DNA of 64,000 bases from an uncultured Pseudomonadota bacterium (GTDB taxonomy: Bacteria > Pseudomonadota > Alphaproteobacteria > RUG11792): assembly GCA_902769055.1 (NCBI GenBank), contig CACXNL010000003.1:20693-84692 (forward strand), given 5' to 3'. Both the position numbers and the translations under genes were made by a program. Shown here in pieces: positions 20,139 to 53,404 of this stretch (positions are counted from its first letter, which is position 1; the number at the start of each line of letters is the position of its first letter). The notes beneath the pieces are model-generated. The model saw nothing but the letters and a program-made list of their open reading frames with translations, ran no database searches and was not told the DNA's origin.

Positions 20139-21773
20139 TTAGAACCAACCACGGACTGTGGCACCAATCCTTGATAATGCGCTCATTGTCTGGCTAGCTG
20201 CGGCTACCACTCGCCTTATAATAGGTCTAATCCACCTCTCATAGAAGCCCTGAGGACGCTGCTCTATTTTTATTACTTTGTTATGATCATCATTTATGAT
20301 TCGCGCTTGTTTGTTATTTTCGGTCTTCGGTTTATTTTCTTCGGCTATATTGCTCGGATTATTGGCACGCTTTATGTTTTGCGCCTGCTGATTATCGTCT
20401 TTCTCTTTATTCTCACCAGTAGTCTTTTGTGATTCCGTCGTTGACACCTCATTCTCTTCGGCGTTTTCAAATTTATGTGCCTGAGGCTCTTCAGTGTCAA
20501 TGTGGTTTTCTTGTATATTTCTCAATTGTAGTTCCGTGTTTCCTTGCTCATTTATGTGGATCTCATGGTTCTCGGGTTTATCAACTATTGTGTTCTCGAC
20601 TTTGTTGTCTTCTTCGTCATTCGGTTCCGTCTTATTCACTGCTTGATTATCCTTGTTAATCTCTGTCTTGTCTTCCTCCTCATCTGATCTTTCTAGGACT
20701 TCCTGTATAGATAGCTCGTCTTTTTTTTTGAGCTCGTTTTCATCAAGAGCAGGTTGTTGATTTTCGTCATTTAGATCAATTTCCAACTTAATCTCATCAC
20801 GTTTATCACTTTCTTCGTCTGACGGGATCCCCTCTGGCTCCTCGCGCGCTAGTTTCTGGAAAAATTTATCCTGCTGTGCTTGGTTGTGCTGGGCGGTGAG
20901 CTTTTTATACTCGTTTTCTTCTTTCTCCCAGTCAATCGCGCTAATCTCGTTCTTAGGTAGTATCGGGTACTCTTTATGATCTTCTTCATACTGTTCCTGT
21001 AATTGATAATAGAGCTTCTGCGTGCTTATTCTGTGTCTGTTATTACTTAGCCATTTTCTAATTTTTTTCTCTTGTTGGTTCATCTTCTTCTTGTCTGTGG
21101 GTTGAGGAGTATAACCATTGAACATGTAGTATATGTTTAATGGTGTCCTATGTTGGTCACCAAACGCCGATATATTAACACATGGCAGTTTGTCGCAGCC
21201 TTTGAACATTCCATTAGTGTTTATCACATTAGATGTATCGAAAGTCCACATATGTAACTGTCTCAAGTTCTTTAGACCATTGAACATGTTAGTCATAATC
21301 ATAGTCTGGCTGGTATCTACAGACCTAAATTGTATGCTCCATATTGACGTCGACTTATTGAACATCGCGCTACAATCCATCGGCATCTTGACCTTTTTCC
21401 CATGCTCCTCACCAATGATCAGGTGCAACTGCAATTTGGGTGAGTCAAGTCCAGCAAATGCGTCGTCAGCCAATACAACTCGCTTACCGCTAATTTCTCC
21501 AGGAATTGCTAATGTCAGTTCAACATCCCGAGACGGCTTCTGCGTCATAACCAACTTCAAACACACTTCATCCCCAGTCGATCCAGGAACCGTTATGAAT
21601 TTTAGAAACTGCGATTTTAGCTGTGTAGATATTTTGTTCCGCGTGGCTTGGTCTCCAAGATTGCAAAGCAGATTTTGCCTTGCTACGGCGCCATGCGCTA
21701 CCTCAAGACTACTCATTGCCGCGAGCAACACCGCTCCGCTCAGTAACAAGGTTCTGTTTTTCATTTCCATCAT
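20139..21773 (-). CDS. Family member F: secreted protein with a BspA/DUF285-like repeat region, acidic C-terminal half and conserved basic Trp tail
   Basis: 544 aa. Signal peptide MKNRTLLLSGAVLLAAMSSLEVAHG. Repeats of the form MFN..........D.S (CSAMFNKSTSIWSIQFRSVDTSQTMIMTNMFNGLKNLRQLHMWTFDTSNVINTNGMFKGCDKL). E/D/N/K-rich tail region. C-terminus FYERWIRPIIRRVV...RGWF. Confidence 0.75.
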   Translation of the reverse strand: MMEMKNRTLLLSGAVLLAAMSSLEVAHGAVARQNLLCNLGDQATRNKISTQLKSQFLKFITVPGSTGDEVCLKLVMTQKPSRDVELTLAIPGEISGKRVVLADDAFAGLDSPKLQLHLIIGEEHGKKVKMPMDCSAMFNKSTSIWSIQFRSVDTSQTMIMTNMFNGLKNLRQLHMWTFDTSNVINTNGMFKGCDKLPCVNISAFGDQHRTPLNIYYMFNGYTPQPTDKKKMNQQEKKIRKWLSNNRHRISTQKLYYQLQEQYEEDHKEYPILPKNEISAIDWEKEENEYKKLTAQHNQAQQDKFFQKLAREEPEGIPSDEESDKRDEIKLEIDLNDENQQPALDENELKKKDELSIQEVLERSDEEEDKTEINKDNQAVNKTEPNDEEDNKVENTIVDKPENHEIHINEQGNTELQLRNIQENHIDTEEPQAHKFENAEENEVSTTESQKTTGENKEKDDNQQAQNIKRANNPSNIAEENKPKTENNKQARIINDDHNKVIKIEQRPQGFYERWIRPIIRRVVAAASQTMSALSRIGATVRGWF

Positions 21774-21804: not shown

Positions 21805-21833
21805 ATTCTATCCCCCCCCCCCACCTTCGTCAA
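21805..21833 (-). promoter_or_regulatory. Predicted sigma70-type promoter of family gene F with a G11 tract in the spacer
   Basis: Minus strand reads TTGACG-aaggt-G11-a-TAGAAT, giving a 17-nt spacer. The tract is C11 at 21812-21822 on the plus strand. Confidence 0.55.
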
Positions 21834-24206: not shown

Positions 24207-24235
24207 TTGCCGGCGATTTTTATAGATGTTAGAAT
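24207..24235 (+). promoter_or_regulatory. Predicted sigma70-type promoter of dapD
   Basis: TTGCCG - 17 nt - TAGAAT, 30 nt upstream of ATG 24265. It overlaps the ORF-track start at 24226, which argues for the downstream start. Confidence 0.5.
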
Positions 24236-28753: not shown

Positions 28754-28783
28754 TTAACATATGTCGCGGGGGGTGGGGAATTG
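28754..28783 (+). promoter_or_regulatory. Family promoter module of gene E with an interrupted tract (G6-T-G4)
   Basis: TTAACA-tatgtcgc-GGGGGGTGGGG-aattg. Same layout as the other family promoters, but the tract is broken by T at 28774 and no good -10 hexamer follows. Confidence 0.35.
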
Positions 28784-28811
28784 TTCTAGAAGTTTTTAAG
28801 GAGTGTTAAAA

Positions 28812-29946
28812 ATGCAAATGAATGAAAGTAGAGCTCTTTTGCTTGCCGGCGTTGTGATGTTTTCGGCGGTGAGTAGTGTACAGGTAGAATGTCTCCGAAG
28901 CGGATACCAGTGCGCAGTTGCCTTCGTTTATACGCATGAAAATAGGCGACTACGACAATGGGCGACGTTTAGAGTCTTTTTACATTGATGGGTGCCTGGA
29001 TGAATTGACTGATGTGACAGTGATTATTTCTGGAAAGAATGGTCGGTTTTGCCTGGGTGGAGGATGCAAGCCGTTTTTTAACTTAAACATTGAGAACCTC
29101 AGGTTGCATTTGTCCATTGAGAACGGCGTTGAACTACTTGGGGATTGTAGTCAGTTGTTCTATAACTCGTCGTCGATATACAGCATTAAGTTCGAGAATG
29201 TAGATACAAGCCGGATGACCTCGATGAAAGAAATGTTCTGTATTTGCCCGAACATTTCTGAATTAGACTTACGTTCTTTTAACACGAAGAACATAGATAA
29301 GGAAGAGATGGGGTTTTTGTTCAATAGTTGTAACAGCTTGGTTAAGCTGAACATAGCTTCGTTTACAGAAGAACAGAAGGGCACCGATAATGTGCTGAGG
29401 ATGTTTGTTGGTGGTGACGTATTGAAGTCGTTGTCGTTTGACAAAAAACTGGCTTACATCCGCGCTATAAGAGGCAAAGTGGAGATCATAGAAGACGATG
29501 TTGCATGTGAAAACAAGTTTTTGCAATTTGAGCAGCATAGTGGTGAACCTAGTTCATCACAACCGGTGGCTATTGAGTCGGAAAAGGACGAGGATTTGAA
29601 ACTTAATAGCAAAATAACATTGAAGCAAAAGGGAGAACTGACGATCCTAGCGCCTGAAAAATCGAATGAAGTTTCTCATAAAGAAAACAGCCAACTTAAA
29701 GCTGATGTCGAGCGTGAAGAACCGTTTAACAGATTAGAAACACCAATTTCGAGCAGTACATTTAAAAAGAATTCTGAGATTTCGATCGCGAGACCACAGG
29801 TAGTAATAACTAAGGACGATAAAGAAAAAGCAAAAACTGCAACAGTTGAGGTGCAACAATCAAAGCAACATAAACCTTGGTATACTCCTATAGTTAAATT
29901 TTGCAGCTGGGTAAAACGCACAGTTTTGTCATGGTTCGGACGCTAA
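28812..29946 (+). pseudogene. Family member E (DUF285/BspA-like repeats), disrupted by a frameshift between the signal peptide and the body
   Basis: The signal peptide MQMNESRALLLAGVVMFSAVSSVQVE is in one frame (stops at 28988). The homologous body (from 28888, ..SAQLPSFIRMKIG.., DUF285-like CSQLFYNSSSIYSIKFENVDTSRMTSMKEMF, tail KPWYTPIVKFCSWVKRTVLSWFGR) is in the +1 frame. The required shift lies between 28888 and about 28910. Confidence 0.6.
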
Positions 29947-30003: not shown

Positions 30004-30012
30004 GGGGGGGGG
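30004..30012 (+). repeat. Orphan G9 tract inside a degenerate copy of the family promoter module
   Basis: gtgtaacgcgc-G9-tgtggattgtgg resembles gtgttaacatatgtcgc-G6TG4-aattgttc at 28751. It lies 16 nt upstream of the argS -35 box and no family gene follows. Confidence 0.6.
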
Positions 30013-30027
30013 TGTGGATTGTGGACG

Positions 30028-30056
30028 TTGACCAAATTGCTAAAGTGGGGTACAAT
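30028..30056 (+). promoter_or_regulatory. Predicted sigma70-type promoter of argS
   Basis: TTGACC - 17 nt - TACAAT, 39 nt upstream of ATG 30095. Confidence 0.55.
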
Positions 30057-35958: not shown

Positions 35959-36368
35959 TTCATTCTTCTTACAAAAAAGCAAGGAATGCTCCTGTGCAAA
36001 AATTGTGTCGCACACAATGCGTCGTTATTTGCGTTGAGGTTATCGCAAATTTTATGGATTAAAGCTATAAAATCAAGGCTTCTGGTGCGATTTTTATTTT
36101 TTTATACGATTTTGGTAAAAAAAGTTAAAAAATGTGTTGACAAAAGTCGCGGGGGGAGAATTAACTCGTGGTTTTGAAAAAGGTATTAAAAAATGCAAAT
36201 GAAGAAAAACAAAGTCCTGTTATTGAGTGGCACAGTGCTGTTTTCAGTGATGGGCGGTATCGAGAAAGCTAATAGCACCGAAATGCAAAACGAGATGAAC
36301 ATAATCAACGAAGAGAGACCCGTTGTGACAACAAATGTTGAGGAAAACAAGGCTCCGCGCATGGATGA
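35959..36368 (+). repeat. Family 5' cassette, copy A (upstream region, promoter, 5' UTR and first ~58 codons)
   Basis: Near-identical by eye to 41553-41963 (inverted) and 45042-45370 (direct). Similarity ends abruptly after the codons for ...ENKAPR. Confidence 0.8.
36137..36161 (+). promoter_or_regulatory. Family promoter of gene A with a G6 tract in the spacer
   Basis: TTGACA-aaagtcgc-G6(36151-36156)-AGAAT. If the -10 box is GAGAAT, the spacer is only 13 nt. Confidence 0.45.
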
Positions 36369-37412
36369 TGAGATAAAGAAGCGTACTGAAGAGCTTCTGG
36401 GAGGCGGGAAAAATATTGATATTCCTGATGACGGGAGAGAATACGTAGTAGTGCACCGCTTGAAAAAATTAAGAACGGATAAAGATATCGATAATGAGTT
36501 GCAAGTTGCTGTGCACCTGGCAGAGAGGGGAGAAGTATCCCTCCAATATTACAACGAGGATTTGCGAGAGTACTTTGAGGGGGAGAGACGTTTACGCGCA
36601 ACTTGGCTGCCGATTTGGGTCTAGAGGGTGTGCCATACGTAAGACCAGAAAATAAGGATAAAAAGCTCGACAATCAAGAATACGTTAAAGAGGAACAAAA
36701 TGAACCATATCGAATTGAGAAAAGCGACAGCAACGTTGACGTAAACTTGCAAGAATGTAAACTGGACTTCCGAGAACTCAAAAAGGAAGAGGAAGATAAA
36801 AAGCAGGACGAGAAAACAGAGCTGAATAATGAGGAAATAAACAATACCAACAATGAGGGCAATGATTTCAACATAAATAACGAAAAACAAGAGCCGGAAG
36901 TTCAAAACACCGCATACATCAATCTTGACGTGACGAAGAAAACACCATACTTTTTCCACGAAGATGAAGACTCAAATGACAACGACCCTACAATGTTGCG
37001 CGATATGCTCCAATATGAAGGCGAGGGCAAGAATGGCAACGAAATACAACAGATAGAGTTAAAAAACGAGATTGATAATGACAACGACATAATAAACTAT
37101 GAGCCAAACAACGACATACTAGGGAACAGCGAAAAAGATCCAGAGTTTCTTGCCAATGAGATGTATGAGAAAGTCACAGGGCAAAAGGTTCCGGAGCACA
37201 TACTAGCATATCAGCGCAAGATATATAATACGTATAAAATTGAGGATAAACAACCTGAGCACTCGATCGATATAGAAAAGGCAACTCACAAGACCTGGTT
37301 CCAAAAAGCGGTAACGACGGTAAAGAGTGGATTAAGTAATGCATGGTCAACTGTAAAACGCGGGTTTAGCTTTGGGTGGAGCAAAGTAAAATCTTCTGTA
37401 TTCAAATGGTAG
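36193..37412 (+). pseudogene. Family member A, split by a frameshift at an internal G5 tract
   Basis: ORFs 36193-36624 (signal peptide and N-terminus) and 36603-37412 (acidic core and tail KTWFQKAVTTVKSGLSNAWSTVKRGFSFGWSKVKSSVFKW) are in different frames. The downstream frame opens exactly at G5 (36579-36583). Paralog B reads GAG GGA GAG AC at the same place (G3). Confidence 0.7.
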
Positions 37413-37440
37413 TAATTGGAAATCAAAACTGAAATCAGCG

Positions 37441-37472
37441 GAGCATCACCTTAGCGGGTGATGCTCTTTTTT
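37441..37472 (+). terminator. Rho-independent terminator of family gene A
   Basis: GAGCATCACC-ttagcg-GGTGATGCTC followed by T6. Confidence 0.75.
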
Positions 37473-37502
37473 AAGGGTGTGGTACCTTTAATAGGTGCGA
37501 GA

Positions 37503-38849
37503 TTATAATTCGATATAGCGAATAGTGCTGAGGAACATCGATTGAGCGCACTCGATTTCTGAATTGGTCTTTGCTTCTATCATAACTCTGGTCACCGGTT
37601 CTGTCCCCGACTTCCGGACGACAATTCTGCCATTATCACGAAGCATTTCGTTTATTTTATTGATACAATCCGAAATTCTTGCATCAGACAAGTCGAGAAT
37701 TCGCGGTATATTTTTCATAATTTGTGGATACGGCGTGTACAAACTTCTGATTTCACTAGCTCTCTCCTTGTTCTGTTGCAAGAAACTCAGTATCTGTATT
37801 GCTGAAATACAGCCATCACCAGTCGACGAGTAATCAATCGGAACAATGTGTCCGGACTTCTCACCGCCAATATTCGCGCCAATTTCCACCATTTTCTGTA
37901 TGACAAACTTGTCGCCGACATTCGTTCTGACAAGATTTAGCCCAATCGAATTCAGGTACTTCTCCATCCCCATATTCGACATAATCGTTGCGACAACGTT
38001 ATTACTCCTGAGTTTCCCAGAAGTTTTCCATGAAGTTGCAATCGCCGCTATCAGATAATCACCATCGATTACTTCACCTTTTTCATCAACTACAATCAGC
38101 CTATCCGCATCGCCGTCAAGCGCTATGCCAATATCCGCCTGATGCTCAACTACGGTTCGTTGCAACAATTCAGTATGAGTAGCGCCGCAATCTTTATTGA
38201 TATTTAATCCATCAGGTTCATTACCAATTTGTATTATCTCAGCGCCAAGCTCCCAGAAAATTTGCGGGGCTATTTTATAAGATGCGCCATTAGCAGTATC
38301 CAAGGCAATTTTTAGCCCAGATAAACTGAGGCTTTTCGGAAATGAACTTTTCACAAACTCAACATAACGTCCCTGCGCATCGTCTAGCCGCCGGGCTTTT
38401 CCCATATCTTCAGTCGCGCTTAATTTCGGATGATTGTGAAATATTTCACTAATCTTGATTTCTTCATCTTCGATAATCTTAAAGCCACTCGCATTAAAAA
38501 ACTTTATACCATTGTCATAATACGGATTGTGCGATGCTGAAATTACGACCCCCAAATCCGCCCTAAGCGACCGCGTCATAAAAGCTACTGCCGGAGTCGG
38601 AATTGGTCCCAACAAGACGACATCAGCTCCAGCGGCTATGAAACCTGAAGTCAGCGCCGGCTCCAGCATATAGCCGGAAAGCCGCGTATCCTTGCCAATT
38701 ACCACAGTGAACTTATTGTTTACACTACGGTGACTTGTGGTCGCGTAGTAGTTCACGACGGAGACCGCCAGTTTCATCGCATTTTCAGGCGTTATATACC
38801 CCTCATTCGCCCTTCCTCTAACACCGTCTGTTCCAAAAATATTATCCAT
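37503..38849 (-). CDS. glmM: Phosphoglucosamine mutase
   Basis: 448 aa. GTDGVRG, phosphoserine loop ISASHNPYYDNG, metal loop DGDADR, GEKSGH. Confidence 0.93.
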   Translation of the reverse strand: MDNIFGTDGVRGRANEGYITPENAMKLAVSVVNYYATTSHRSVNNKFTVVIGKDTRLSGYMLEPALTSGFIAAGADVVLLGPIPTPAVAFMTRSLRADLGVVISASHNPYYDNGIKFFNASGFKIIEDEEIKISEIFHNHPKLSATEDMGKARRLDDAQGRYVEFVKSSFPKSLSLSGLKIALDTANGASYKIAPQIFWELGAEIIQIGNEPDGLNINKDCGATHTELLQRTVVEHQADIGIALDGDADRLIVVDEKGEVIDGDYLIAAIATSWKTSGKLRSNNVVATIMSNMGMEKYLNSIGLNLVRTNVGDKFVIQKMVEIGANIGGEKSGHIVPIDYSSTGDGCISAIQILSFLQQNKERASEIRSLYTPYPQIMKNIPRILDLSDARISDCINKINEMLRDNGRIVVRKSGTEPVTRVMIEAKTNSEIECAQSMFLSTIRYIEL

Positions 38850-40738
38850 TATTCCTCATCGCTTGTTGGCAATCCGCCCAGTTTAAAATCGTCCAGGTCA
38901 TCCTCTATAGGCGCTGCCCTTTTGAGCTTTTTGCCCTCAAAAATCCGCTTTACCTCATCTCCAGTTAAAGTCTCGTGCTCCAGCAGGCTAAGCGCCATAC
39001 GCTCCAGTTTCTTTTTATGTTTCGTAATCATTCCTTTTACCTCCGCATACGCCGCCTCTATTATGGCTTTGACCTCGGAATCGATAGTCTCGGAAGTATT
39101 CTGAGATATTTGGTCGCTCGCATCCAAGTAATACCCATCAGCAGAATCGTAGAACGTCCTTAAACCTATTTTGTCGCTCATTCCCCACTTTATAACCATT
39201 TTCTTAGCTACATCCGTCGCCTGTTTCAAATCCGACGATGCACCAGTAGTTATGTTGTCCTGTCCGAAGAATATTTCTTCTGCGGCTCGTCCACCAAGTG
39301 ATACTCGTATATTTGACAACAACTCGGTCTTTGTTACCGATACTTTGTCTTTCTCTGGCAGCCTCACGACCATACCCAAAGCGCCGCCGCGCGGAATTAT
39401 CGTGACCTTATGTATCGGGTCACATTGTGGAACCAAAAGTGCAATGAGTGCGTGTCCAGCCTCGTGATACGCGGTATTCCGCTTTTCCTCATCCGTCATA
39501 CTCATCGATTTCCGCTCAGCTCCCATAATGACTTTGTCCTTAGCCAATTCGAAATCCTTCATAGCAACCGACAATTTGTCGTCACGAGCCGCCAAAAGCG
39601 CTGCTTCATTGACCAAATTTGCCAACTCTGCTCCTGAAAATCCAGGTGTACCACGCGCTACTGTCTTCAGATCAACATCCGGAGAAAGCGGAACATTTTT
39701 TGTATGCACAGTCAAAATTTTCTCACGCCCATTCATATCCGGGTACTGCACCGTAATGCGCCGGTCAAACCGCCCAGGACGTAGCAACGCCGGATCGAGT
39801 ATATCGGCGCGATTAGTTGCTGCCAACACTATAACGCCTTGATTTTCATCAAATCCGTCCATTTCGACTAATAACTGGTTCAATGTTTGTTCTCGCTCAT
39901 CATTACCTCCTCGCCCGCTGTCACGACGACGCCCAACCGCATCTATTTCATCAATGAATATTATGCAAGGCGAATTTTTCTTAGCTGTCTCGAATATATC
40001 ACGTACCCTACTGGCACCGACACCGACGAATACTTCAACAAAATCTGAGCCAGAAATGCTGAAAAACGGCACACCCGCTTCGCCCGCAATGGCTTTTGCC
40101 AGCAAAGTTTTCCCATTTCCAGGATCACCAACAAGCAGCATACCTCGCGGTATTTTGCCTCCCAGCCTTTGATATTTTTGCGGCGCCTTCAAGAAATCAA
40201 CGATTTCCTCCAATTCTTGCTTTGCCTCATCTATTCCGGCAACATCCGCGAACGTAATTTTGATTTTTTTCGGCTGGAACATTTTCGCTTTTGATTTGCC
40301 TATGCCGAAAGCACCTCCTCCGAAGCCACCGCCTTTCCCGCCTCCCTGCATTTGGCGCGCCGAATATATCATAAGCCCAATCAGAAGTAGGAATGGGAAC
40401 CACTGTATTAGCGCCGATACCAGGTATCCCCAACCCGAATCGCCGCTTTCAACTTTTATCTCGACGCCATTATCTAGCAATTTCTCGACCATTTTCGCAT
40501 CATATGGCGTAATCGTGCTAAATACAGACCCATCATTGAGCACACCAGTGAGCTTTGACGAGGTGTTTCGAATATTCACCTCTTTCACATCTCCGGCAGA
40601 AACCGCTTTTATGAATTTAGAGTATGTGATTTCCTTCGGATTACCTCCTAATATTTTCGAGTCAAATGGCGCAGCTATCAAAAACAATAAGCCGATTAAA
40701 AATATCCACGATAGAATATTTTTTGTATTTCTGTTCAT
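38849..40738 (-). CDS. ftsH: ATP-dependent zinc metalloprotease FtsH
   Basis: Two N-terminal TM helices, Walker [12 protein letters not shown], Walker [12 protein letters not shown], zinc motif HEAGHAL. Met at 40738 ([11 protein letters not shown]) is preferred because the ORF-track extension contains a terminator hairpin. Confidence 0.95.
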
Positions 40739-40810
40739 TTCCAATGCTCGAAAGTTCTTTACGCCGCCATTATACCACCTAATCTCATGTGGTGGCTTCT
40801 TTTTTAATAC

Positions 40811-40841
40811 AAAAAGCACATCACCCGTTCAGGTGGTGTGC
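40811..40841 (-). terminator. Rho-independent terminator of family gene B
   Basis: Minus strand reads GCACACCACC-tgaacg-GGTGATGTGC (one mismatch) followed by T5. The sequence is related to the gene A terminator. Confidence 0.65.
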
Positions 40842-40866
40842 CTCGCGTTTCAAGATTTGTGGCGTT

Positions 40867-41724
40867 TTACTTCAACTTAAAGACAGATTTTACTTTTTGC
40901 CATCCAAAGGTAAATCCGCTCTTAATAGCAGTCCAGGCACGGGTTATTCCGCTCTTGACTGTAGTCGCCACTTTGCTATACCAAGGTTTTAACTCTATCT
41001 TCTTTTCGATTATTGTAGATTGACCTTTAAAGAATTCGTTATATTTTATTGGTATTGGTGATTCTTGCTTTTTTACGAAATCGGGCACAGATTGCCCTGT
41101 CTTTTCTTCGTATATTTTATTGAAGGGAAGTGCATCGGCCTCCTTTCTTATGCGGTCACCCTCGCCTTGTTTCTGTGTGAGAGTTATGGTTCCAGTATTA
41201 TCGTTACTCTCTTTAGAAGTACTCAGTTCCTTATTATTCTTTTTATCGTCATTCGTTTTGTCGTCGTTCTCACGTTTTAGATCATATATCTCATTTTCGA
41301 TGCTTAGATCTTGATCGTCGTCTTCTGGGAGCTCTATGATGCTGTGAAGTTTGTTTAGGTATTTACTCGATATTATGAAACTCTTGTTTAGTATGTCGTT
41401 GTGATCTTTCGCCTCTGTGTCCTCCTTATTATCTTTTTCATCCTCGTGATTGTCGGTTAGACCAGATTGCTTCTGATTGTTATTCCTGACGTACGGTACC
41501 CCCACCTTACCTAACGCTTTAGCTACAGTGACAGGCATAGTCTCTCCCTCATATATTCGCGGAGCCTTGTTTTTCTCAACATTTGTCGTCACAACAGGTT
41601 TCTCATCATTGATGATGTTTATCTCGTTCTGTATTTCAGCGCTATTAGCTTCCTCGACACTACCCGTTACTGAGAACAGCACTGTGCCGCCCAATAATAG
41701 AGCTTTGTTTTTCTTCATTTGCAT
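40867..41724 (-). CDS. Family member B: secreted acidic protein with the conserved Trp/Lys tail
   Basis: 285 aa. MQMKKNKALLLGGTVLFSVTGSVEEANS signal peptide, D/E/N/K-rich core, tail KPWYSKVATTVKSGITRAWTAIKSGFTFGWQKVKSVFKLK. Confidence 0.8.
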   Translation of the reverse strand: MQMKKNKALLLGGTVLFSVTGSVEEANSAEIQNEINIINDEKPVVTTNVEKNKAPRIYEGETMPVTVAKALGKVGVPYVRNNNQKQSGLTDNHEDEKDNKEDTEAKDHNDILNKSFIISSKYLNKLHSIIELPEDDDQDLSIENEIYDLKRENDDKTNDDKKNNKELSTSKESNDNTGTITLTQKQGEGDRIRKEADALPFNKIYEEKTGQSVPDFVKKQESPIPIKYNEFFKGQSTIIEKKIELKPWYSKVATTVKSGITRAWTAIKSGFTFGWQKVKSVFKLK

Positions 41725-41963
41725 TTTTTAATACCTTTTTTAAAACCACAAGCTAATTATCCCCCCCCGCGACTTTTGTCAACACATTTTTTAACTTTTT
41801 TTACAAAAGTCGTATAAAAAAATAAAAATTGCACCAGAAGCCTTGATTTCCTAGGCTAAATGTATAGAATTTGCGATAATTTTTTTTTGGTAACGGCGAC
41901 GCATCATGCGCGACGCAATTTTTGCACAGGCGCATCCCTTGCTTTTTTGTGAGAAGAATGAAT
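41553..41963 (-). repeat. Family 5' cassette, copy B (inverted relative to copies A and C)
   Basis: The reverse complement aligns by eye with 35959-36368 from gaattCATTCTTCT.. through the promoter, 5' UTR and first ~58 codons. Confidence 0.8.
41756..41782 (-). promoter_or_regulatory. Family promoter of gene B with a G8 tract in the spacer
   Basis: Minus strand reads TTGACA-aaagtcgc-G8-ATAAT, so the -10 box is GATAAT and the spacer is 15 nt. The tract is C8 at 41761-41768 on the plus strand. Confidence 0.5.
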
Positions 41964-41990
41964 TCTGATACCTCCCTACGCAATTACACC

Positions 41991-42067
41991 TGGTGTCCCC
42001 GGTGGGATTTGAACCTACGACCTCAGGATTAGGAATCCTACGCTCTATCCATCTGAGCTACGAGGAC
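41991..42067 (-). tRNA. tRNA-Arg (anticodon CCU)
   Basis: 77-nt cloverleaf on the minus strand: acceptor GTCCTCG/CGGGGAC (one G-U), D-arm GCTC-AGATGGATA-GAGC, anticodon arm TAGGA-TTCCTAA-TCCTG, T-arm GTAGG-TTCAAAT-CCCAC (one A-C mismatch), ACCA end. Confidence 0.85.
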
Positions 42068-42249
42068 ACGCGCTTCATTGTAGCACGTAGGCGCCGGTGC
42101 CACAAACCATCTTCTACCGCAACGAATAATTGTCACTGGTGGCGGGAGAAAAAATTCAATAAATGCCGAAAACTTAAGCTGTCCATCACAAACGTTAGAA
42201 ATATTTCTCGCATGTGTGTTTTGAACAAAGAAAAATGTTAACAAATATG

Positions 42250-42278
42250 TTGCCGTGAGCAATGATATGAGTTACAAT
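42250..42278 (+). promoter_or_regulatory. Predicted canonical promoter of family gene G, with no homopolymer tract
   Basis: TTGCCG - 17 nt (tgagcaatgatatgagt) - TACAAT, about 34 nt upstream of GTG 42312. The flanking sequence (aaaaatgttaacaaatatgttg) matches the family promoter module. Confidence 0.55.
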
Positions 42279-42311
42279 TGCTCTGTAAGTTTTAAAGAGG
42301 TGTTTTTTAAG

Positions 42312-43352
42312 GTGGAGACAAGAAATATAGTGCTGAGCGGTGCCGTGCTGTTTTCGGTAATCGGAAGTGTAGAGGTGGCGAATGGCGCTGTGTTAAATCA
42401 AGAGATGAAATCAGAATTGGGGGGGGGCAACCACAATTTTCGATCTTCGCTAGCTCCTCTGAAAGGCAAATCTGAATTTGCGGAAGATGCAATAACGCAA
42501 TTGCCTTTGGGGAAAACTAGTAAACCTGGTTTGCTACAGCACGATATGCGAAAAACAGCGGCTATGAGTGAGGATCTTGGTTATCTCAGCACTGAAGGTG
42601 ATATGGCTGAAGATGACCTAGAAGAGCAAAATGCAAATATTTCAGATAATTCCATTGAATTATATATTGTCAATGAAAATAAAGTTGACAAAGGTGAAGA
42701 AATACGTACACACAAAACCATGATAAGCGTGTTGGACGAATTTAAGGACGACGCCTATAACGATGCAAAGAACGAAGATATAAACGAGAATAGCGCCGAT
42801 AAGGAATATGATTTCGATATTGATGATGATCCCGAATATGACGAAGCAGTAAGAAAGCACAAAGATATGATGAAGCGAGGATGTGAAGATAAAAAGGAAT
42901 ACAGTAGCCATGACACTCAAAACGTTGAGGAGTTTATACAGCCTGCGGAGCCACAAAATAGCGGGCGTACTGAGATAACAGAACAACATCGCTACAGGGT
43001 ATCGTCATTTACCATGGAGTTCTCGCCAACGTCATTTACCATGAATCAATCGGGTAACATGACGTTTTCTATAGTGAAGGAAAAAGATTGTGCTGATGAC
43101 GATATCTACCGTCAGCTTTACGAAGTTGCCATGAAGAAAGCCGACGAGACATGGAAGCATGAGCTGTGGATGCAACAACTCTCTTGGTTTGAGCGCACTG
43201 TATACAAGCTGAAAAAGTCGGTGAGTTGTATCGTGCATAAAGCATGCACAACCTTATCAAGGTTTGCGTCCAAATTCACGTCTATCTTCAAAAAGAAGAA
43301 TAGTTCGATTATTTCAAAGAGGATACGTGGAGAGGTTCCGCCTCTAGCGTGA
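42312..43352 (+). CDS. Family member G: secreted acidic protein with a G9 tract in the coding region
   Basis: Probable GTG start after AAGAGG. Signal peptide (V)ETRNIVLSGAVLFSVIGSVEVANG, acidic core, basic tail LSWFERTVYKLKKSVSCIVHKACTTLSRFASKFTSIFKKK. The ORF-track ATG at 42255 lies inside the predicted promoter. Confidence 0.7.
   Translation: METRNIVLSGAVLFSVIGSVEVANGAVLNQEMKSELGGGNHNFRSSLAPLKGKSEFAEDAITQLPLGKTSKPGLLQHDMRKTAAMSEDLGYLSTEGDMAEDDLEEQNANISDNSIELYIVNENKVDKGEEIRTHKTMISVLDEFKDDAYNDAKNEDINENSADKEYDFDIDDDPEYDEAVRKHKDMMKRGCEDKKEYSSHDTQNVEEFIQPAEPQNSGRTEITEQHRYRVSSFTMEFSPTSFTMNQSGNMTFSIVKEKDCADDDIYRQLYEVAMKKADETWKHELWMQQLSWFERTVYKLKKSVSCIVHKACTTLSRFASKFTSIFKKKNSSIISKRIRGEVPPLA
42419..42427 (+). 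repeat. Intragenic G9 homopolymer (codons for Gly-Gly-Gly) about 36 codons into gene G
   Basis: gaa ttg GGG GGG GGc aac. Read by hand, a -1 slip reaches TAG after 10 codons and a +1 slip reaches TGA after about 19 codons. Confidence 0.9.
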
Positions 43353-43562
43353 GAGGATTACTTTTTCACTAATTACGAAGCTGTTGATGAGACATCATCG
43401 TCAGCTTCAGTGCGTGAAGCGGGCGATGCTACGTTTCGTGGCTGTGTCGTTATAAGCAAAAAGGATTGTAGCAAAATCTCCGATTTCTCGAATGGTAAAT
43501 TTGGACTTCGGACATAAGGATAAACTTTTTGGATAATTTTTAACATAAAAGATACAAATAGT

Positions 43563-43591
43563 ATTGACATATGATGCGGGGGGGGGGACAA
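43563..43591 (+). promoter_or_regulatory. Family promoter of gene D with a G10 tract in the spacer
   Basis: TTGACA-tatgatgc-G10(43577-43586)-ACAAT, so the -10 box is GACAAT and the spacer is exactly 17 nt. Confidence 0.55.
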
Positions 43592-43623
43592 TATGCCCCG
43601 TAAACTTCGATGGAGTGTTAAGA

Positions 43624-44919
43624 ATGAAAAGAAATAATTTGTTGCTGGGCGGCACAGTGCTGTTCTTGGTATCTGGGGGTATGGAGATGGCACATGCCTC
43701 TGAGATGAAGCATGAGGTGACCTGGAAGACGCGACTGAATTTTGATATGCCAAAGACAATAAGTCAAAAGCTGGGAGCGCCGGAAAGAGGTTTCCGCTCT
43801 GCGCAAAGGATAATGCAGGGTGGTAAAGCTCACACAAAGTTGCCTAGTTTTCAGAGCAACAGTACAGAGGATGATCAAAGCGACGGCAACGGGGTGGCTG
43901 AGGAGTTAGATCAAAAGTTTGTCAGTGGACAAAAGATACGCGAAGATTTTGAATACAACGTGGGCATGGAGGAGTTCGGCGAGGAAACACTCGGTGAAAA
44001 TCTCCCTGGGGTAGGGAAAGTATCTGGAAGCGTAATTGGCACTTCGGGCTCGTATTTTAAGAACACCGTTCACAAGAAGGATGGCGTGGATCTTTCGGAG
44101 AAGAGTATCGACCCAAAAGTTAAGGCGCAAAACACGTATAGTTTTACGCAAAAAAGCAAAGAGTTCGATGACATGATGGGGCTAGATGAAGGCGTCGATC
44201 CGATCAGCTGCTTAGTTCCGAGTTCAAATAAGGGTGATAAGAATGACGTGGCTCTCGGGAAAGTACATCCATACAGTCCTAAAAGTGCGTTAAGGTACTT
44301 TACGCATACGCATAAGAAGGGGGATCGTCGTGAAGGTAATGAATCTGAGATAATAGAACCGCAGAGTGCCTTGTATAACATAAGCAATGCGATTACCACG
44401 AACAAGCTGGAGATTAACGACAAGAAAAACGAGGACGATGAAGAAATACCGAATATAAAGAGAAACCTAGGCGAGGACTTTGCTGAGGATTTCCAGAATG
44501 AAGACGAGGTGAACGATAAGGAGAACGCAATTGGAATAAAGGAAGATCAAGGTAATTGCTCAGAAGATGTTAAAGGGGACGATAAAATCGAAAACGCTAA
44601 TAATGAAGAGAAAGTAAAAGGAGAATCAGCCGATAAAGACGCGCAGTTGAATAATATAGCCCTGAACGCGAGCAAAGAACTTCAGATTAACGAGCAGGTT
44701 TTGGGCAAACAGACCACAGATGAAATAATCGACCCGAGTACTAAACAAAGCGAGACTATAAAGAAGAACAGCGACGATGATAATAATAACAAAATAGTCG
44801 TTGAGTATGAAAAGCCAAGAAAGTGGTACAGTGGTATTATTTCAGTAATAAAGCGCGCTGTAAATTACGTGGTAACTTCCATCAAATCTGGATGGAAAAG
44901 TCTGAAATCTCGATTTTAA
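43624..44919 (+). CDS. Family member D: secreted acidic protein with the conserved Trp/Lys tail
   Basis: Start MKRNNLLLGGTVLFLVSGGMEMAHA after GGAG. 431 aa. E/D/N/K-rich C-terminal half. Tail RKWYSGIISVIKRAVNYVVTSIKSGWKSLKSRF. Confidence 0.8.
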   Translation: MKRNNLLLGGTVLFLVSGGMEMAHASEMKHEVTWKTRLNFDMPKTISQKLGAPERGFRSAQRIMQGGKAHTKLPSFQSNSTEDDQSDGNGVAEELDQKFVSGQKIREDFEYNVGMEEFGEETLGENLPGVGKVSGSVIGTSGSYFKNTVHKKDGVDLSEKSIDPKVKAQNTYSFTQKSKEFDDMMGLDEGVDPISCLVPSSNKGDKNDVALGKVHPYSPKSALRYFTHTHKKGDRREGNESEIIEPQSALYNISNAITTNKLEINDKKNEDDEEIPNIKRNLGEDFAEDFQNEDEVNDKENAIGIKEDQGNCSEDVKGDDKIENANNEEKVKGESADKDAQLNNIALNASKELQINEQVLGKQTTDEIIDPSTKQSETIKKNSDDDNNNKIVVEYEKPRKWYSGIISVIKRAVNYVVTSIKSGWKSLKSRF

Positions 44920-44929
44920 ACTTACTTCC

Positions 44930-44963
44930 GGAGCGAACTGATACAGGCTCGCTCCGTTTTTTT
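44930..44963 (+). terminator. Rho-independent terminator of gene D
   Basis: GGAGCGA-actgatacaggc-TCGCTCC, then G and T7. Confidence 0.7.
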
Positions 44964-45041
44964 AAATCACCATAGATAAAGGATTGTGCTCTTCTGTGGG
45001 ATTAGCGCTAGCTGGGAGATGCGTTACTTTCGACGAAAGAA

Positions 45042-45370
45042 ATTGTCGCAAATTTTACAGATTAAAGCTAGGAAATCAAGGCTTCTGGTGCAGATTTTAT
45101 TTTTTTTACGATTTTGGTAAAAAAAGTTAAAAAATATGTTGACAAAGGTCGCGGGGGGGAGAATTAACTTGTAGTTTTGAAAAAGGTATTAAAAAATGCA
45201 AATGAAGAAAAACAAAGTCCTGTTATTAGGCGGCACAGTGTTGTTCTCAGTAATGGGCGGTATCGAAAAAGCTAATAGCGCAGAAATACAGAACGAGATA
45301 AACATCATCAACAAAGAGAAACCTATTGTGATAAACAACACTGAGGAAAACAAGGCTCCGCGCATGGATG
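45042..45370 (+). repeat. Family 5' cassette, copy C
   Basis: Aligns by eye with 36040-36368 (..tcgcaaatttta..aatcaaggcttctggtgc..ttgaca..atgcaaatgaagaaaaacaaagtcctgttatt..). Confidence 0.75.
45139..45164 (+). promoter_or_regulatory. Family promoter of gene C with a G7 tract in the spacer
   Basis: TTGACA-aaggtcgc-G7(45153-45159)-AGAAT. With a GAGAAT -10 box, the spacer is 14 nt. Confidence 0.45.
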
Positions 45371-45999
45371 AGAATGTTAACAATATCGAGAATCCAGTGA
45401 ATATCGATATTCAGAAGCGTGTAAAAGAGGTGCTAGGAGACGGTGATGACTTCGAAGATCCTAAGGATAGCAAAGAGCGAGTGGTATTTAATCCATGCGA
45501 TACGGATGAGAAAAAGCAAGAGGGGATACTGCTGAACATAGAATATGTAGAACGAGGTGTCCAGAATGTAAAAACTGCAAACCACGCTATAACTGATGTA
45601 CTGGAGGGGCAAACGGTCGAAAAGGAGTATATAGATCCAGGCATGGAACCGTATTGCAAACCGTATACACCGAATAAAAACGAGAGCAATGAAGAAGATA
45701 AGAAGGAAAATGACAATAACATAATAACAAAAACGACAAATGAAATTGAGTTCACCAAAATGTATGAACAGGAAACAGGTCAAAAAGTTACTGACAGCGT
45801 CAAGCAAATGCAGAACGAGATACTAAGCAAGTACACCGTTGAGACTAAGAAACCTATGGATGCGAACGATGTAGAGCAAGCGAAGTCGGTGACTTGGTAT
45901 GGCAAAGTCTTCAATAAGGTCAAGCATGGACTCAATTATGTTTGGACTAGTATAAAGACTGGATGGAGCAAAGTAAAGTCTATTTTTAAGTGGAAGTAA
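45196..45999 (+). CDS. Family member C: secreted acidic protein with the conserved Trp/Lys tail
   Basis: 267 aa. MQMKKNKVLLLGGTVLFSVMGGIEKANS signal peptide. Tail VTWYGKVFNKVKHGLNYVWTSIKTGWSKVKSIFKWK. Confidence 0.8.
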   Translation: MQMKKNKVLLLGGTVLFSVMGGIEKANSAEIQNEINIINKEKPIVINNTEENKAPRMDENVNNIENPVNIDIQKRVKEVLGDGDDFEDPKDSKERVVFNPCDTDEKKQEGILLNIEYVERGVQNVKTANHAITDVLEGQTVEKEYIDPGMEPYCKPYTPNKNESNEEDKKENDNNIITKTTNEIEFTKMYEQETGQKVTDSVKQMQNEILSKYTVETKKPMDANDVEQAKSVTWYGKVFNKVKHGLNYVWTSIKTGWSKVKSIFKWK

Positions 46000-46161: not shown

Positions 46162-46238
<77 letters not shown>

Positions 46239-46254
46239 AATTTAATCGAGAGCG

Positions 46255-47349
46255 TTGGTGTTTGGTTCTTTAAAACGGGTATCACACAAAACTCCAGAGA
46301 AGCAGGTGGGCGCGTATCCGGGGCGTCTTATAGGGAAGTTGATATACGCTCCTGGGAAGTTTTCTTTCGTTAAAGCGGTGGATGTTGCGATCAAATCGTG
46401 CGATGTGGATTTCGTAAGCATTAAGTCGAACATCAATTATTCTTCCAAATATACCGACGTTTCGGTGATTGAGGGATTGAAGGATGGTATTGCCGAGATA
46501 TATGTGAATACGTCGGGAATATCTGGAATAGATGGTATATTGCCGGATTGCTATACCGAGGAGTATATAACGCATAATAGCGAGCATAAAAAGGCGGTTG
46601 TCGATTTTTTGGATATATTTAACGAACGCATATTGATGCTACGATACAGGTATTTAAAAAGACAAAACGTCGAGACACTCTCTGTACCGATCGAAAAATC
46701 GCTTATTGGAAAAATAATTTATAGCCTTTCAGGATTTGGCTTTGATGAAGATCATGAACGGGTAGTTCCGAATATTATTCCAGAGCAGTTTAAGATTTCC
46801 GTACAAAATTTGCTGTGGAGGTATACACGTTCCGCTTCGGGATTAAAAGCCATTCTTGAGAGCTTCTTTAAAATACCTGTAGAAATACGTCAGTTTGAAG
46901 GAGGATTTGTTCGGGTAAGTCCCGGAGAACAAACATCAATTGGAAAGAGGGGAAATTATAATAAATTGGGGCAGAACAGTTTCTTAGGGGATAAAGTTTG
47001 GGATGCGACGCAAGGTATTACAATTTTGATTGGCGCTTTAGATTTCAAGCAGTATGCTAAATTTTTGCCGAAACAATCTCATTTGGATCAAAAATTCTCG
47101 CCGCTTCAAAAGATGAAAGAGATAATAAGGCTATACGTCCCACATGGAATTAAGGTCAATTTACGTTTCTTTTTGGATAAATGTGCGGTAAAAGGTACTG
47201 TTTTAAACGGGACAGAGCGATTGAATAAAGATTCTTTTATATTTGGAGTGCATGGTTCTAAAAGTGCTTTTTTTGAGGAGATACGAAACCTGAAAAAGAA
47301 AAGAAGCCTTCGATGGCTAATCCAAAAAGTTTCCCTAGTATTACTTTGA
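46255..47349 (+). CDS. tssG: Type VI secretion baseplate subunit TssG (ImpH family)
   Basis: 364 aa. Matches TssG landmarks by eye: FSFVKAVD, GIDGILPDCYTEEYI, VVDFLDIFNERILMLRYRYLKR, FFKIPVEIRQFEGGFV, LGQNSFLGDKVWDATQGITILIGALDFKQYAKFLP, LRFFLDK. TTG start 17 nt after the tRNA. Confidence 0.85.
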   Translation: MVFGSLKRVSHKTPEKQVGAYPGRLIGKLIYAPGKFSFVKAVDVAIKSCDVDFVSIKSNINYSSKYTDVSVIEGLKDGIAEIYVNTSGISGIDGILPDCYTEEYITHNSEHKKAVVDFLDIFNERILMLRYRYLKRQNVETLSVPIEKSLIGKIIYSLSGFGFDEDHERVVPNIIPEQFKISVQNLLWRYTRSASGLKAILESFFKIPVEIRQFEGGFVRVSPGEQTSIGKRGNYNKLGQNSFLGDKVWDATQGITILIGALDFKQYAKFLPKQSHLDQKFSPLQKMKEIIRLYVPHGIKVNLRFFLDKCAVKGTVLNGTERLNKDSFIFGVHGSKSAFFEEIRNLKKKRSLRWLIQKVSLVLL

Positions 47350-53375: not shown

Positions 53376-53404
53376 TTGCTCATACCGGCAAGAACAGTTA
53401 CAAT
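53376..53404 (+). promoter_or_regulatory. Predicted sigma70-type promoter of kdsA
   Basis: TTGCTC - 17 nt - TACAAT, 38 nt upstream of ATG 53442. The ORF-track start at 53376 coincides with the -35 box. Confidence 0.55.

Follow-up and report, generated by a model that had tools for sequence, protein, structure and literature searches.

The window analysed here is a 64-kb stretch of the genome of an uncultured rumen alphaproteobacterium (contig CACXNL010000003.1), in which seven genes (A to G) were found to form a family of protein-coding paralogs; an earlier note on the same DNA had recognised six of them, omitting gene G. Promoters were predicted from sequence and their elements read directly. 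In five of the family genes a simple-sequence tract, an uninterrupted run of G residues (n = 11, 10, 8, 7 and 6), lies between the -35 box TTGAC(A/G) and the -10 box xAxAAT of the predicted promoter, the spacers of genes F, D, B, C and A being 17, 17, 15, 14 and 13 nucleotides (nt) by direct count, respectively. The subject of this report is whether the lengths of these tracts switch the genes on and off. The family genes were located as follows (aa, amino acids):

36193..37412, plus strand: gene A, frameshifted (36193-36624 plus 36603-37412); its intact ortholog, P0006, has 424 aa
40867..41724, minus strand: gene B, 285 aa
45196-45999, plus strand: gene C, intact reading frame
43624-44919, plus strand: gene D, with a G10 promoter
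42255/42312-43352, plus strand: gene E, with a coding G9 tract at 42419-42427
20139..21773, minus strand: gene F, 544 aa, comprising a signal peptide, a region of DUF285/BspA-like repeats and a C-terminal tail that is basic and Trp-rich
28812..29946, plus strand: gene G, disrupted by a 35-nt deletion at 28887

Their predicted promoters have the following anatomy:

36137..36161, plus strand: core promoter of gene A, TTGACA (36137-36142), aaagtcgc, G6 (36151-36156), GAGAAT (36156-36161), spacer 13 nt
41756..41782, minus strand: core promoter of gene B, TTGACA (41782-41777), aaagtcgc, G8 (41768-41761), GATAAT (41761-41756), spacer 15 nt
45139..45164, plus strand: core promoter of gene C, TTGACA (45139-45144), aaggtcgc, G7 (45153-45159), GAGAAT (45159-45164), spacer 14 nt
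43564..43592, plus strand: promoter of gene D, TTGACA (43564-43569), tatgatgc, G10 (43578-43587), GACAAT (43587-43592), spacer 17 nt
21805..21833, minus strand: promoter of gene F, TTGACG (21833-21828), aaggt, G11 (21822-21812), a, TAGAAT (21810-21805), spacer 17 nt
28754..28785, plus strand: promoter homolog of gene G, TTAACA-tatgtcgc-G6-T-G4-AATTGT, with an interrupted tract (28768-28778) and a degraded -35 box
42250..42278, plus strand: promoter of gene E, TTGCCG-17-TACAAT, tract-free

The tract lengths and spacers that the earlier note had given for A, B, C, D and F were borne out by this reading, and so were its positions apart from those for D (43563 and 43577-43586), each of which was off by one.

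All members except E have a homologous promoter of the sigma-70 type, in which the G homopolymer takes up the 3' portion of the -35/-10 spacer and directly adjoins the -10 box. At the five sites the start codon lies ~30 nt downstream of the promoter and opens the signal peptide MQMKKNK..LL.GTVLFSV. Three diverged versions of the promoter, with the leaders aaRgtcgc, tatgatgc and gaaggt, carry the tract in the spacer, and it is found in promoters of paralogs with only 19-30% protein identity; the tract appears to have been retained through the divergence of the paralogs. The spacer of the A/B/C type equals 8 + (n - 1) nt, so that G10 yields the 17-nt optimum; in a promoter scan the same DNA with G10 scored as TTGACA-17-GAGAAT, and with G11 had an 18-nt spacer. 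A consensus scanner independently detected D (43564-43592) and F (21833-21805) as 10-of-12 promoters with a 17-nt spacer and did not report the promoters of A, B and C, the spacers of which are outside 16-18 nt. Direct reading of the alternative -10-like hexamers at 16-18 nt in A and C gave AATTAA, ATTAAC and TTAACT, each of which is without the conserved A2, T6 or both. Relative to a slippage threshold of ~8 or more residues, the tracts of F (11), D (10) and B (8) qualify, those of C (7) and A (6) are marginal, and that of G is interrupted. Formation of a G-quadruplex was considered and rejected, since each site has a single G run.

Long G runs were counted in clear excess in the window: GGGGGG matched 32 times versus 9.0 ± 3.7 in shuffled sequences, and GGGGGGGG 12 times versus 0.33 ± 0.74. 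Runs of at least eight G or C residues numbered five in 64 kb versus 0.39 expected (~13-fold commoner than chance), with four of the five located in family genes. A G9 run at 30004-30012, equal in length in assembly L021, was also seen between gene G, which ends shortly before it, and the argS -35 box, which lies 15 nt farther downstream; the run is outside any recognisable family promoter.

Every tract-free promoter checked (argS, dapD, kdsA, E and a tRNA gene) has 17-nt spacing, the tRNA promoter reading TTGACG-17-TACAAT. The first three had been put forward in the earlier note as tract-free controls with 17-nt spacing, and all exist as described there:

30028-30056: argS promoter, 17-nt spacer
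24207-24235: dapD promoter, 17-nt spacer
53376-53404: kdsA promoter, 17-nt spacer

Tract lengths in other strains

Loci were recovered from other metagenome assemblies by exact-protein look-ups. The window strain, S1, is also represented by L001-L004, L018 and L020-L024; a second strain, S2 (L007-L009, L016, L019 and L105), has ~93% DNA identity to S1, and a third (L015) and a fourth (L017) are known from single contigs each. Direct comparison of orthologous tracts revealed that seven of eight differ in length between S1 and S2, the tract of B being available from the third strain as well:

Locus A: G6 in S1; G11 in S2 (L007, L009)
Locus B: G8 in S1; G9 in S2 (L019 9053-9061); G9 in L015
Locus C in S1, X at the same position in S2: G7 in S1 (L001, L002, L018); G10 in S2
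Locus D: G10 in S1; G10 in S2
Locus E, coding tract: G9 in S1; G8 in S2
Locus F: G11 in S1 (the window and five other assemblies); G12 in S2 (L105 9951-9962)
Locus G: G6-T-G4 in S1; uninterrupted G9 in S2, TTGACA-tatgtcgc-G9-ATTGTT (L105 2998-3006)
Locus H, outside the window: G9 in S1; G8 in S2

The earlier note, which had proposed phase variation at these promoters, had named invariance of tract length between strains as the outcome that would tell against it; the hypothesis survived this comparison. In an alignment of 10 cassettes (the conserved promoter and 5' segments of the genes, described below), the G run alone was strongly length-variable, with six lengths (6-11, or 14), and the neighbouring A7, A6 and T7 runs were nearly constant. 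Three of the 11 small non-triplet indels between S1 and S2 in 9.2 kb fell inside the ~34 nt of G tracts, and two coding runs outside the family, G7 (26975) and C6 (26748), showed no length change by indel between the two strains. Slippage, and a dependence on the spacer, are well supported by such sequence comparison, since the lengths differ between strains and straddle the value giving a 17-nt spacer.

Gene E carries its G9 tract directly after the signal peptide, in frame in the window. Two frame states were observed directly: G9 is in frame (window, L001, L003), and G8 (L007, L008, L009 and L019; position 1253-1260 in L007/L008/L009) splits the gene into 61 + 263 aa. The gene thus combines a homopolymer in the 5' coding region with length variants in and out of frame, the arrangement of a coding-region contingency locus, and would provide a second, translational mode of phase variation in the same family, switching by frameshift. 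A look-up of a hypothetical OFF-state product of gene E with S1 sequence, used as a proxy for within-strain heterogeneity, found none on record.

The state of the coding regions differs among the other members. Gene A has two extra G residues at 36579 (36579-36583; G5 in S1 versus G3 in the intact ortholog of S2) that produce a +2 frameshift, and is therefore inactive whatever the state of its promoter. In assembly L021, gene G codes for an intact protein of 389 aa; apart from the 35-nt deletion, the window and L021 are separated by a single substitution in 12.9 kb. B and C have intact reading frames and proteins identical across assemblies. Two further observations concern the protein bodies. 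Only four differences were seen in 1.7 kb between the window and L018, clustered at 45717-45725, where AATAACATAATAAC is replaced by a 13-A run in L018 that changes NNII to KKKK in protein C and is either an artefact or a newly formed homopolymer. At the syntenic F locus, the proteins of S1 (20139-21773) and S2 (L105 10001-11656) are only 59% identical, the flanking genes having ~93% DNA identity and the promoter and signal peptide being nearly identical; the body of the gene F protein appears to be diverging very fast or being exchanged.

Cassettes, gene order and the protein family

Genes A, B and C share a cassette that extends on both sides of the core promoter:

36040..36368, plus strand: cassette of gene A, running from ~95 nt of conserved DNA upstream, which include an A-rich UP-like stretch, through the core promoter and the 5' untranslated region (UTR) to the signal peptide and conserved N-terminus
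41548..41886, minus strand: cassette of gene B, inverted relative to its repeats at A and C
45036..45372, plus strand: cassette of gene C, of the same A/B/C type

These cassettes, called near-identical in the earlier note, have pairwise identities of 86-90%, and an ungapped repeat finder breaks each of them at the G tract. Immediately beyond the A and B cassettes, at 35959-36024 and 41897-41962, there is another inverted repeat of 66 nt (89% complementary), so the duplicated unit around A and B extends past the cassette. Each A/B/C cassette also contains, on the opposite strand, a conserved promoter-like site TTGATT-16-TAAAAT/TAGAAT pointing away from the family gene (36049-36076 and 45052-45079 on the minus strand, 41843-41870 on the plus strand), which may be due to chance in A/T-rich DNA. 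An Rfam scan detected no RNA family in the cassettes, only four tRNAs. In the fourth strain, locus H (L017 1600-1720) has lost the -35 box, tract, -10 box, 5' UTR and ribosome-binding site by deletion between two TTAAAAAATG direct repeats, and its gene is promoterless.

Gene order differs between strains, with breakpoints at the cassettes. S1 has carD, A glmM ftsH B(-), tRNA E D, C tssG, and S2 has X(-), tRNA E D, A glmM ftsH B(-), groEL(-); in the third strain (L015) the cassette and body of B come after the 3' flank of D, which is identical at 212/224 nt. D is thus followed by the body of C in S1, by that of A in S2 and by that of B in L015. The S2 order would result from that of S1 by two inversions in succession, each between cassettes of opposite orientation. 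Both of these arrangements are found on k141 contigs, longer than the 54 nt of the longest exact repeat that cassettes share; the join in L015 may be a chimera of k=31 assembly. It is possible, and we put it forward tentatively, that the ~330-nt cassette doubles as a portable block of homology, at which inversions re-pair promoters with different gene bodies and reorder the chromosome; this would give two tiers of variation (slippage and recombination) in a Holosporales-like lineage, possibly one resident within rumen protists.

Other features of the region include two tRNA genes that flank the E-D-C block (41994-42067 on the minus strand and 46162-46235 on the plus strand) and, after gene C, a lone homologue of the type VI secretion baseplate gene tssG (46255-47349); no other type VI secretion genes were found in the window.

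The family proteins can be aligned at two places only, the signal peptide with ~28 more residues and the basic Trp-rich C-terminal tail (consensus WY.K...VK.G...W..IK.GW.KVKS.FKWK), which enclose an acidic middle of low complexity. The signal peptide is of the Sec type and ends in ANS/A, without Cys (no lipobox); the family products are probably secreted or surface-associated. Pfam and NCBIfam scans of the family proteins gave no match except a weak one to DUF285 in F (the neighbouring gene matched TssG), and an AlphaFold2 model of protein C was not usable (mean predicted local distance difference test score, pLDDT, 39.7), suggesting only a disordered body and a C-terminal helix. The family is an orphan with few relatives: 6 were counted in 5.8 billion clustered proteins and 12 in 1.84 billion representatives. 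Among the cluster members, one bears the name 'MAG: Alphaproteobacteria bacterium' (MAG, metagenome-assembled genome). Identical proteins were found solely in metagenome assemblies from ENA and Logan, several of them labelled as rumen data.

The nearest GTDB genomes by FtsH are the rumen MAGs RUG14192, RGIG3458, RUG11852 and RUG14374 (86-89% identity), followed by MAGs named Holosporales bacterium (73-78%). Holosporales are otherwise known as endosymbionts of protists. In these related species found via FtsH, both the rumen and the Holosporales MAGs, no cassette or family gene adjoining ftsH was seen, and a scan of GTDB genomes with family peptides returned 254 pattern matches, among which no relative was confirmed. 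Five matches from a JGI metagenome scan with the cassette pattern, in DNA of 59-70% G+C, were rejected as chance.

Proposed switch and rival explanations

The best explanation of these data, which we regard as probable, is promoter-spacer homopolymer phase variation of the porA / vlp / fim type, with gene E varying by frameshift. Replication slippage would add or remove G residues in the spacer tract, the changed number would alter the spacing of the two hexamers, and this in turn the binding of RNA polymerase. Each gene would then drift on its own among three states, full at 16-18 nt, weak at 15 nt and silent at 14 nt or less, while gene E would switch at the G9 tract in its 5' coding region. 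The transcription start sites, the effect of tract length on expression, and how fast and how reversibly the genes switch are elements of this model that we infer from sequence alone. In the window strain, D and F are predicted to be on (17-nt spacers), as is E, with its constitutive promoter and G9 in frame. B is predicted to be weak at 15 nt, but has the best -10 box (GATAAT); C (14 nt), A (13 nt plus the frameshift) and G (degraded promoter plus the 35-nt deletion) are predicted to be off.

A number of observations weigh against this reading. The predicted -10 boxes of the family match at only 4-5 of 6 positions. Across ~28 kb aligned between S1 and S2, length had changed in 4 of 7 A/T runs of at least 8 residues (2 of 57 for A/T runs of 6-7), which means that long homopolymers in general are unstable at this divergence; length change at 7% divergence would by itself be no proof of a programmed switch. 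The family tracts seem to stand out by the size of the change (up to +5), by position and by retention, not by variability alone. Consensus lengths are uniform across the S1 assemblies that cover each tract, six for F (G11), four for C (G7), three each for D (G10) and E (G9), and two for B (G8), and likewise across three S2 assemblies, although some same-strain assemblies may re-assemble the same reads and so not count as independent observations. D, the longest shared tract, is G10 in both strains. The essential gene ftsH of S2 contains an in-frame G9 (L019 10475-10483, CAA GGG GGG GGG AAA), where S1 (window ~40290-40300, minus strand) reads CAG GGA GGC GGG AAA, GGGAGGCGGG; such a run argues against extreme instability of poly-G in this organism. 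The S2 promoter of gene A reads G14-ATT in L008 and L019 and G11-AGA-ATT in L007 and L009 at equal total length, and the G14 version is probably an Illumina error after a long G run, which would mean that single tract calls are not to be trusted. Finally, G6 and G7 are among the shortest tracts prone to slippage and stand 3-4 steps from ON. The loci had been described in the earlier note as switching independently, but for A and C a locked-off state seems likelier than free switching, since tracts of this length slip poorly and sit so far from the ON length, and A, which is also frameshifted, looks to be decaying.

The alternatives draw on parts of the same evidence. The tracts may be ordinary mutable homopolymers that travel with the cassettes in gene conversion, their variation being neutral and expression being set by another promoter or an activator. 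We consider this unlikely. The instability of long A/T runs and the uniform consensus lengths within a strain are what it would lead one to expect, and the ~95 nt of conserved DNA upstream of the -35 box could bind a regulator; however, in neither the A nor the C cassette does the scanner pick up another promoter on the same strand, three diverged promoter versions have the tract in the spacer, D and F stand at exactly 17 nt, and long G runs are not expected to persist unselected in a genome of 41% G+C.

It is also rather improbable, in our estimation, that the short-tract copies A, C and G are simply decaying pseudogenes, permanently silenced as the family is lost from the window strain. The reading frames of B and C are intact and their proteins identical across assemblies, A and G have intact orthologs, with long tracts, in other assemblies or strains, and decay of some copies is compatible with phase variation of others. 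For A, with its 13-nt spacer and frameshift, and for G, with its interrupted tract, TTAACA -35 box and 35-nt deletion, decay would nevertheless fit; locus H, lacking its whole core promoter in L017, and the rarity of slippage at G6 and G7 point the same way. As to artefacts of sequencing or assembly, the tracts recur at the same positions across independent pipelines and samples (ENA k87, k141, STEW19 scaffolds and Logan), on which ground such an origin was rejected, and the reading frames of E in both strains match the tract lengths. The discrepancy between G14 and G11-AGA in the S2 promoter of gene A, and L007 being chimeric in glmM and ftsH, speak for errors in the runs or their lengths, an explanation that we hold to be extremely improbable.

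If promoter-spacer phase variation does operate here, the organism has a set of secreted or surface proteins whose expression varies stochastically and combinatorially, a behaviour that usually signals an arms race with a host, predator or phage, and the orphan family would constitute its main interface molecules. Tract-length spectra from reads would offer a ready read-out for metagenomic studies. To our knowledge, phase variation has not been described in a Holosporales-like lineage. The mechanism itself is textbook, so the gain lies in biology and distribution rather than in principle: what appears to be new is the lineage, the orphan family, its combination of promoter tracts with a coding tract, and the rearrangements linked to the cassettes.

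Comparison with known systems

In Bordetella pertussis, a poly-C tract between the activator/-35 region and the -10 box controls each of the genes fim2, fim3 and fimX independently. The present genes resemble these in being a small paralogous family with a C/G homopolymer upstream of the -10 box; they differ in that the fim promoters depend on the activator BvgA, whereas no activator is known for the family here. The vlp family of Mycoplasma hyorhinis, the subject of work by Yogev et al. in 1991 and by Citti and Wise in 1995, reportedly has conserved 5' cassettes, spacer homopolymers and combinatorial expression. As in our family, vlp paralogs each have a conserved cassette (promoter and signal peptide), a spacer homopolymer of their own and variable charged bodies. 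Unlike it, they carry a poly-A tract and encode lipoproteins of a wall-less Mollicute; the family here has poly-G, no lipobox and no sequence homology. Membership of the Vlp family by homology was not supported (no Pfam/NCBIfam match, no Cys, poly-G), which leaves vlp as an analogue only; the vlp system has been outlined in general terms (PMC4198240).

In Neisseria meningitidis porA, a poly-G tract lies between the -35 and -10 boxes, expression is full at 17-nt spacing, and spacing below 17 nt reduces or abolishes transcription (PMC7864442). The likeness is that a G homopolymer in the sigma-70 spacer of a surface-protein gene sets the hexamer spacing (PMC7864442); the difference is that porA is a single porin gene, in contrast to a whole paralogous family in an uncultured alphaproteobacterium known from sequence alone. 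Poly-G tracts are also found at the promoters of tprE/G/J, tp0126 and tprL in Treponema pallidum, with within-strain variation demonstrated by fragment-length analysis (PMC7864442). That system shares with ours variable promoter poly-G at putative outer-membrane protein genes of a host-restricted bacterium, one long not cultivable in vitro; it departs from ours in that the tprL tract overlaps the -10 box and leaves spacing unaltered, and in that tprE/G/J are permissive at 8 G's or fewer, while the optimum here, determined by the spacer, would be ~G10-G11. The coding tract of gene E is like the poly-G/C contingency genes of Neisseria, Haemophilus and Campylobacter, differing only by lineage and by its orphan protein. 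Overall, the architecture of the family appears to resemble most closely Mycoplasma hyorhinis vlp and Bordetella fim, as an analogue rather than a homologue of these systems.

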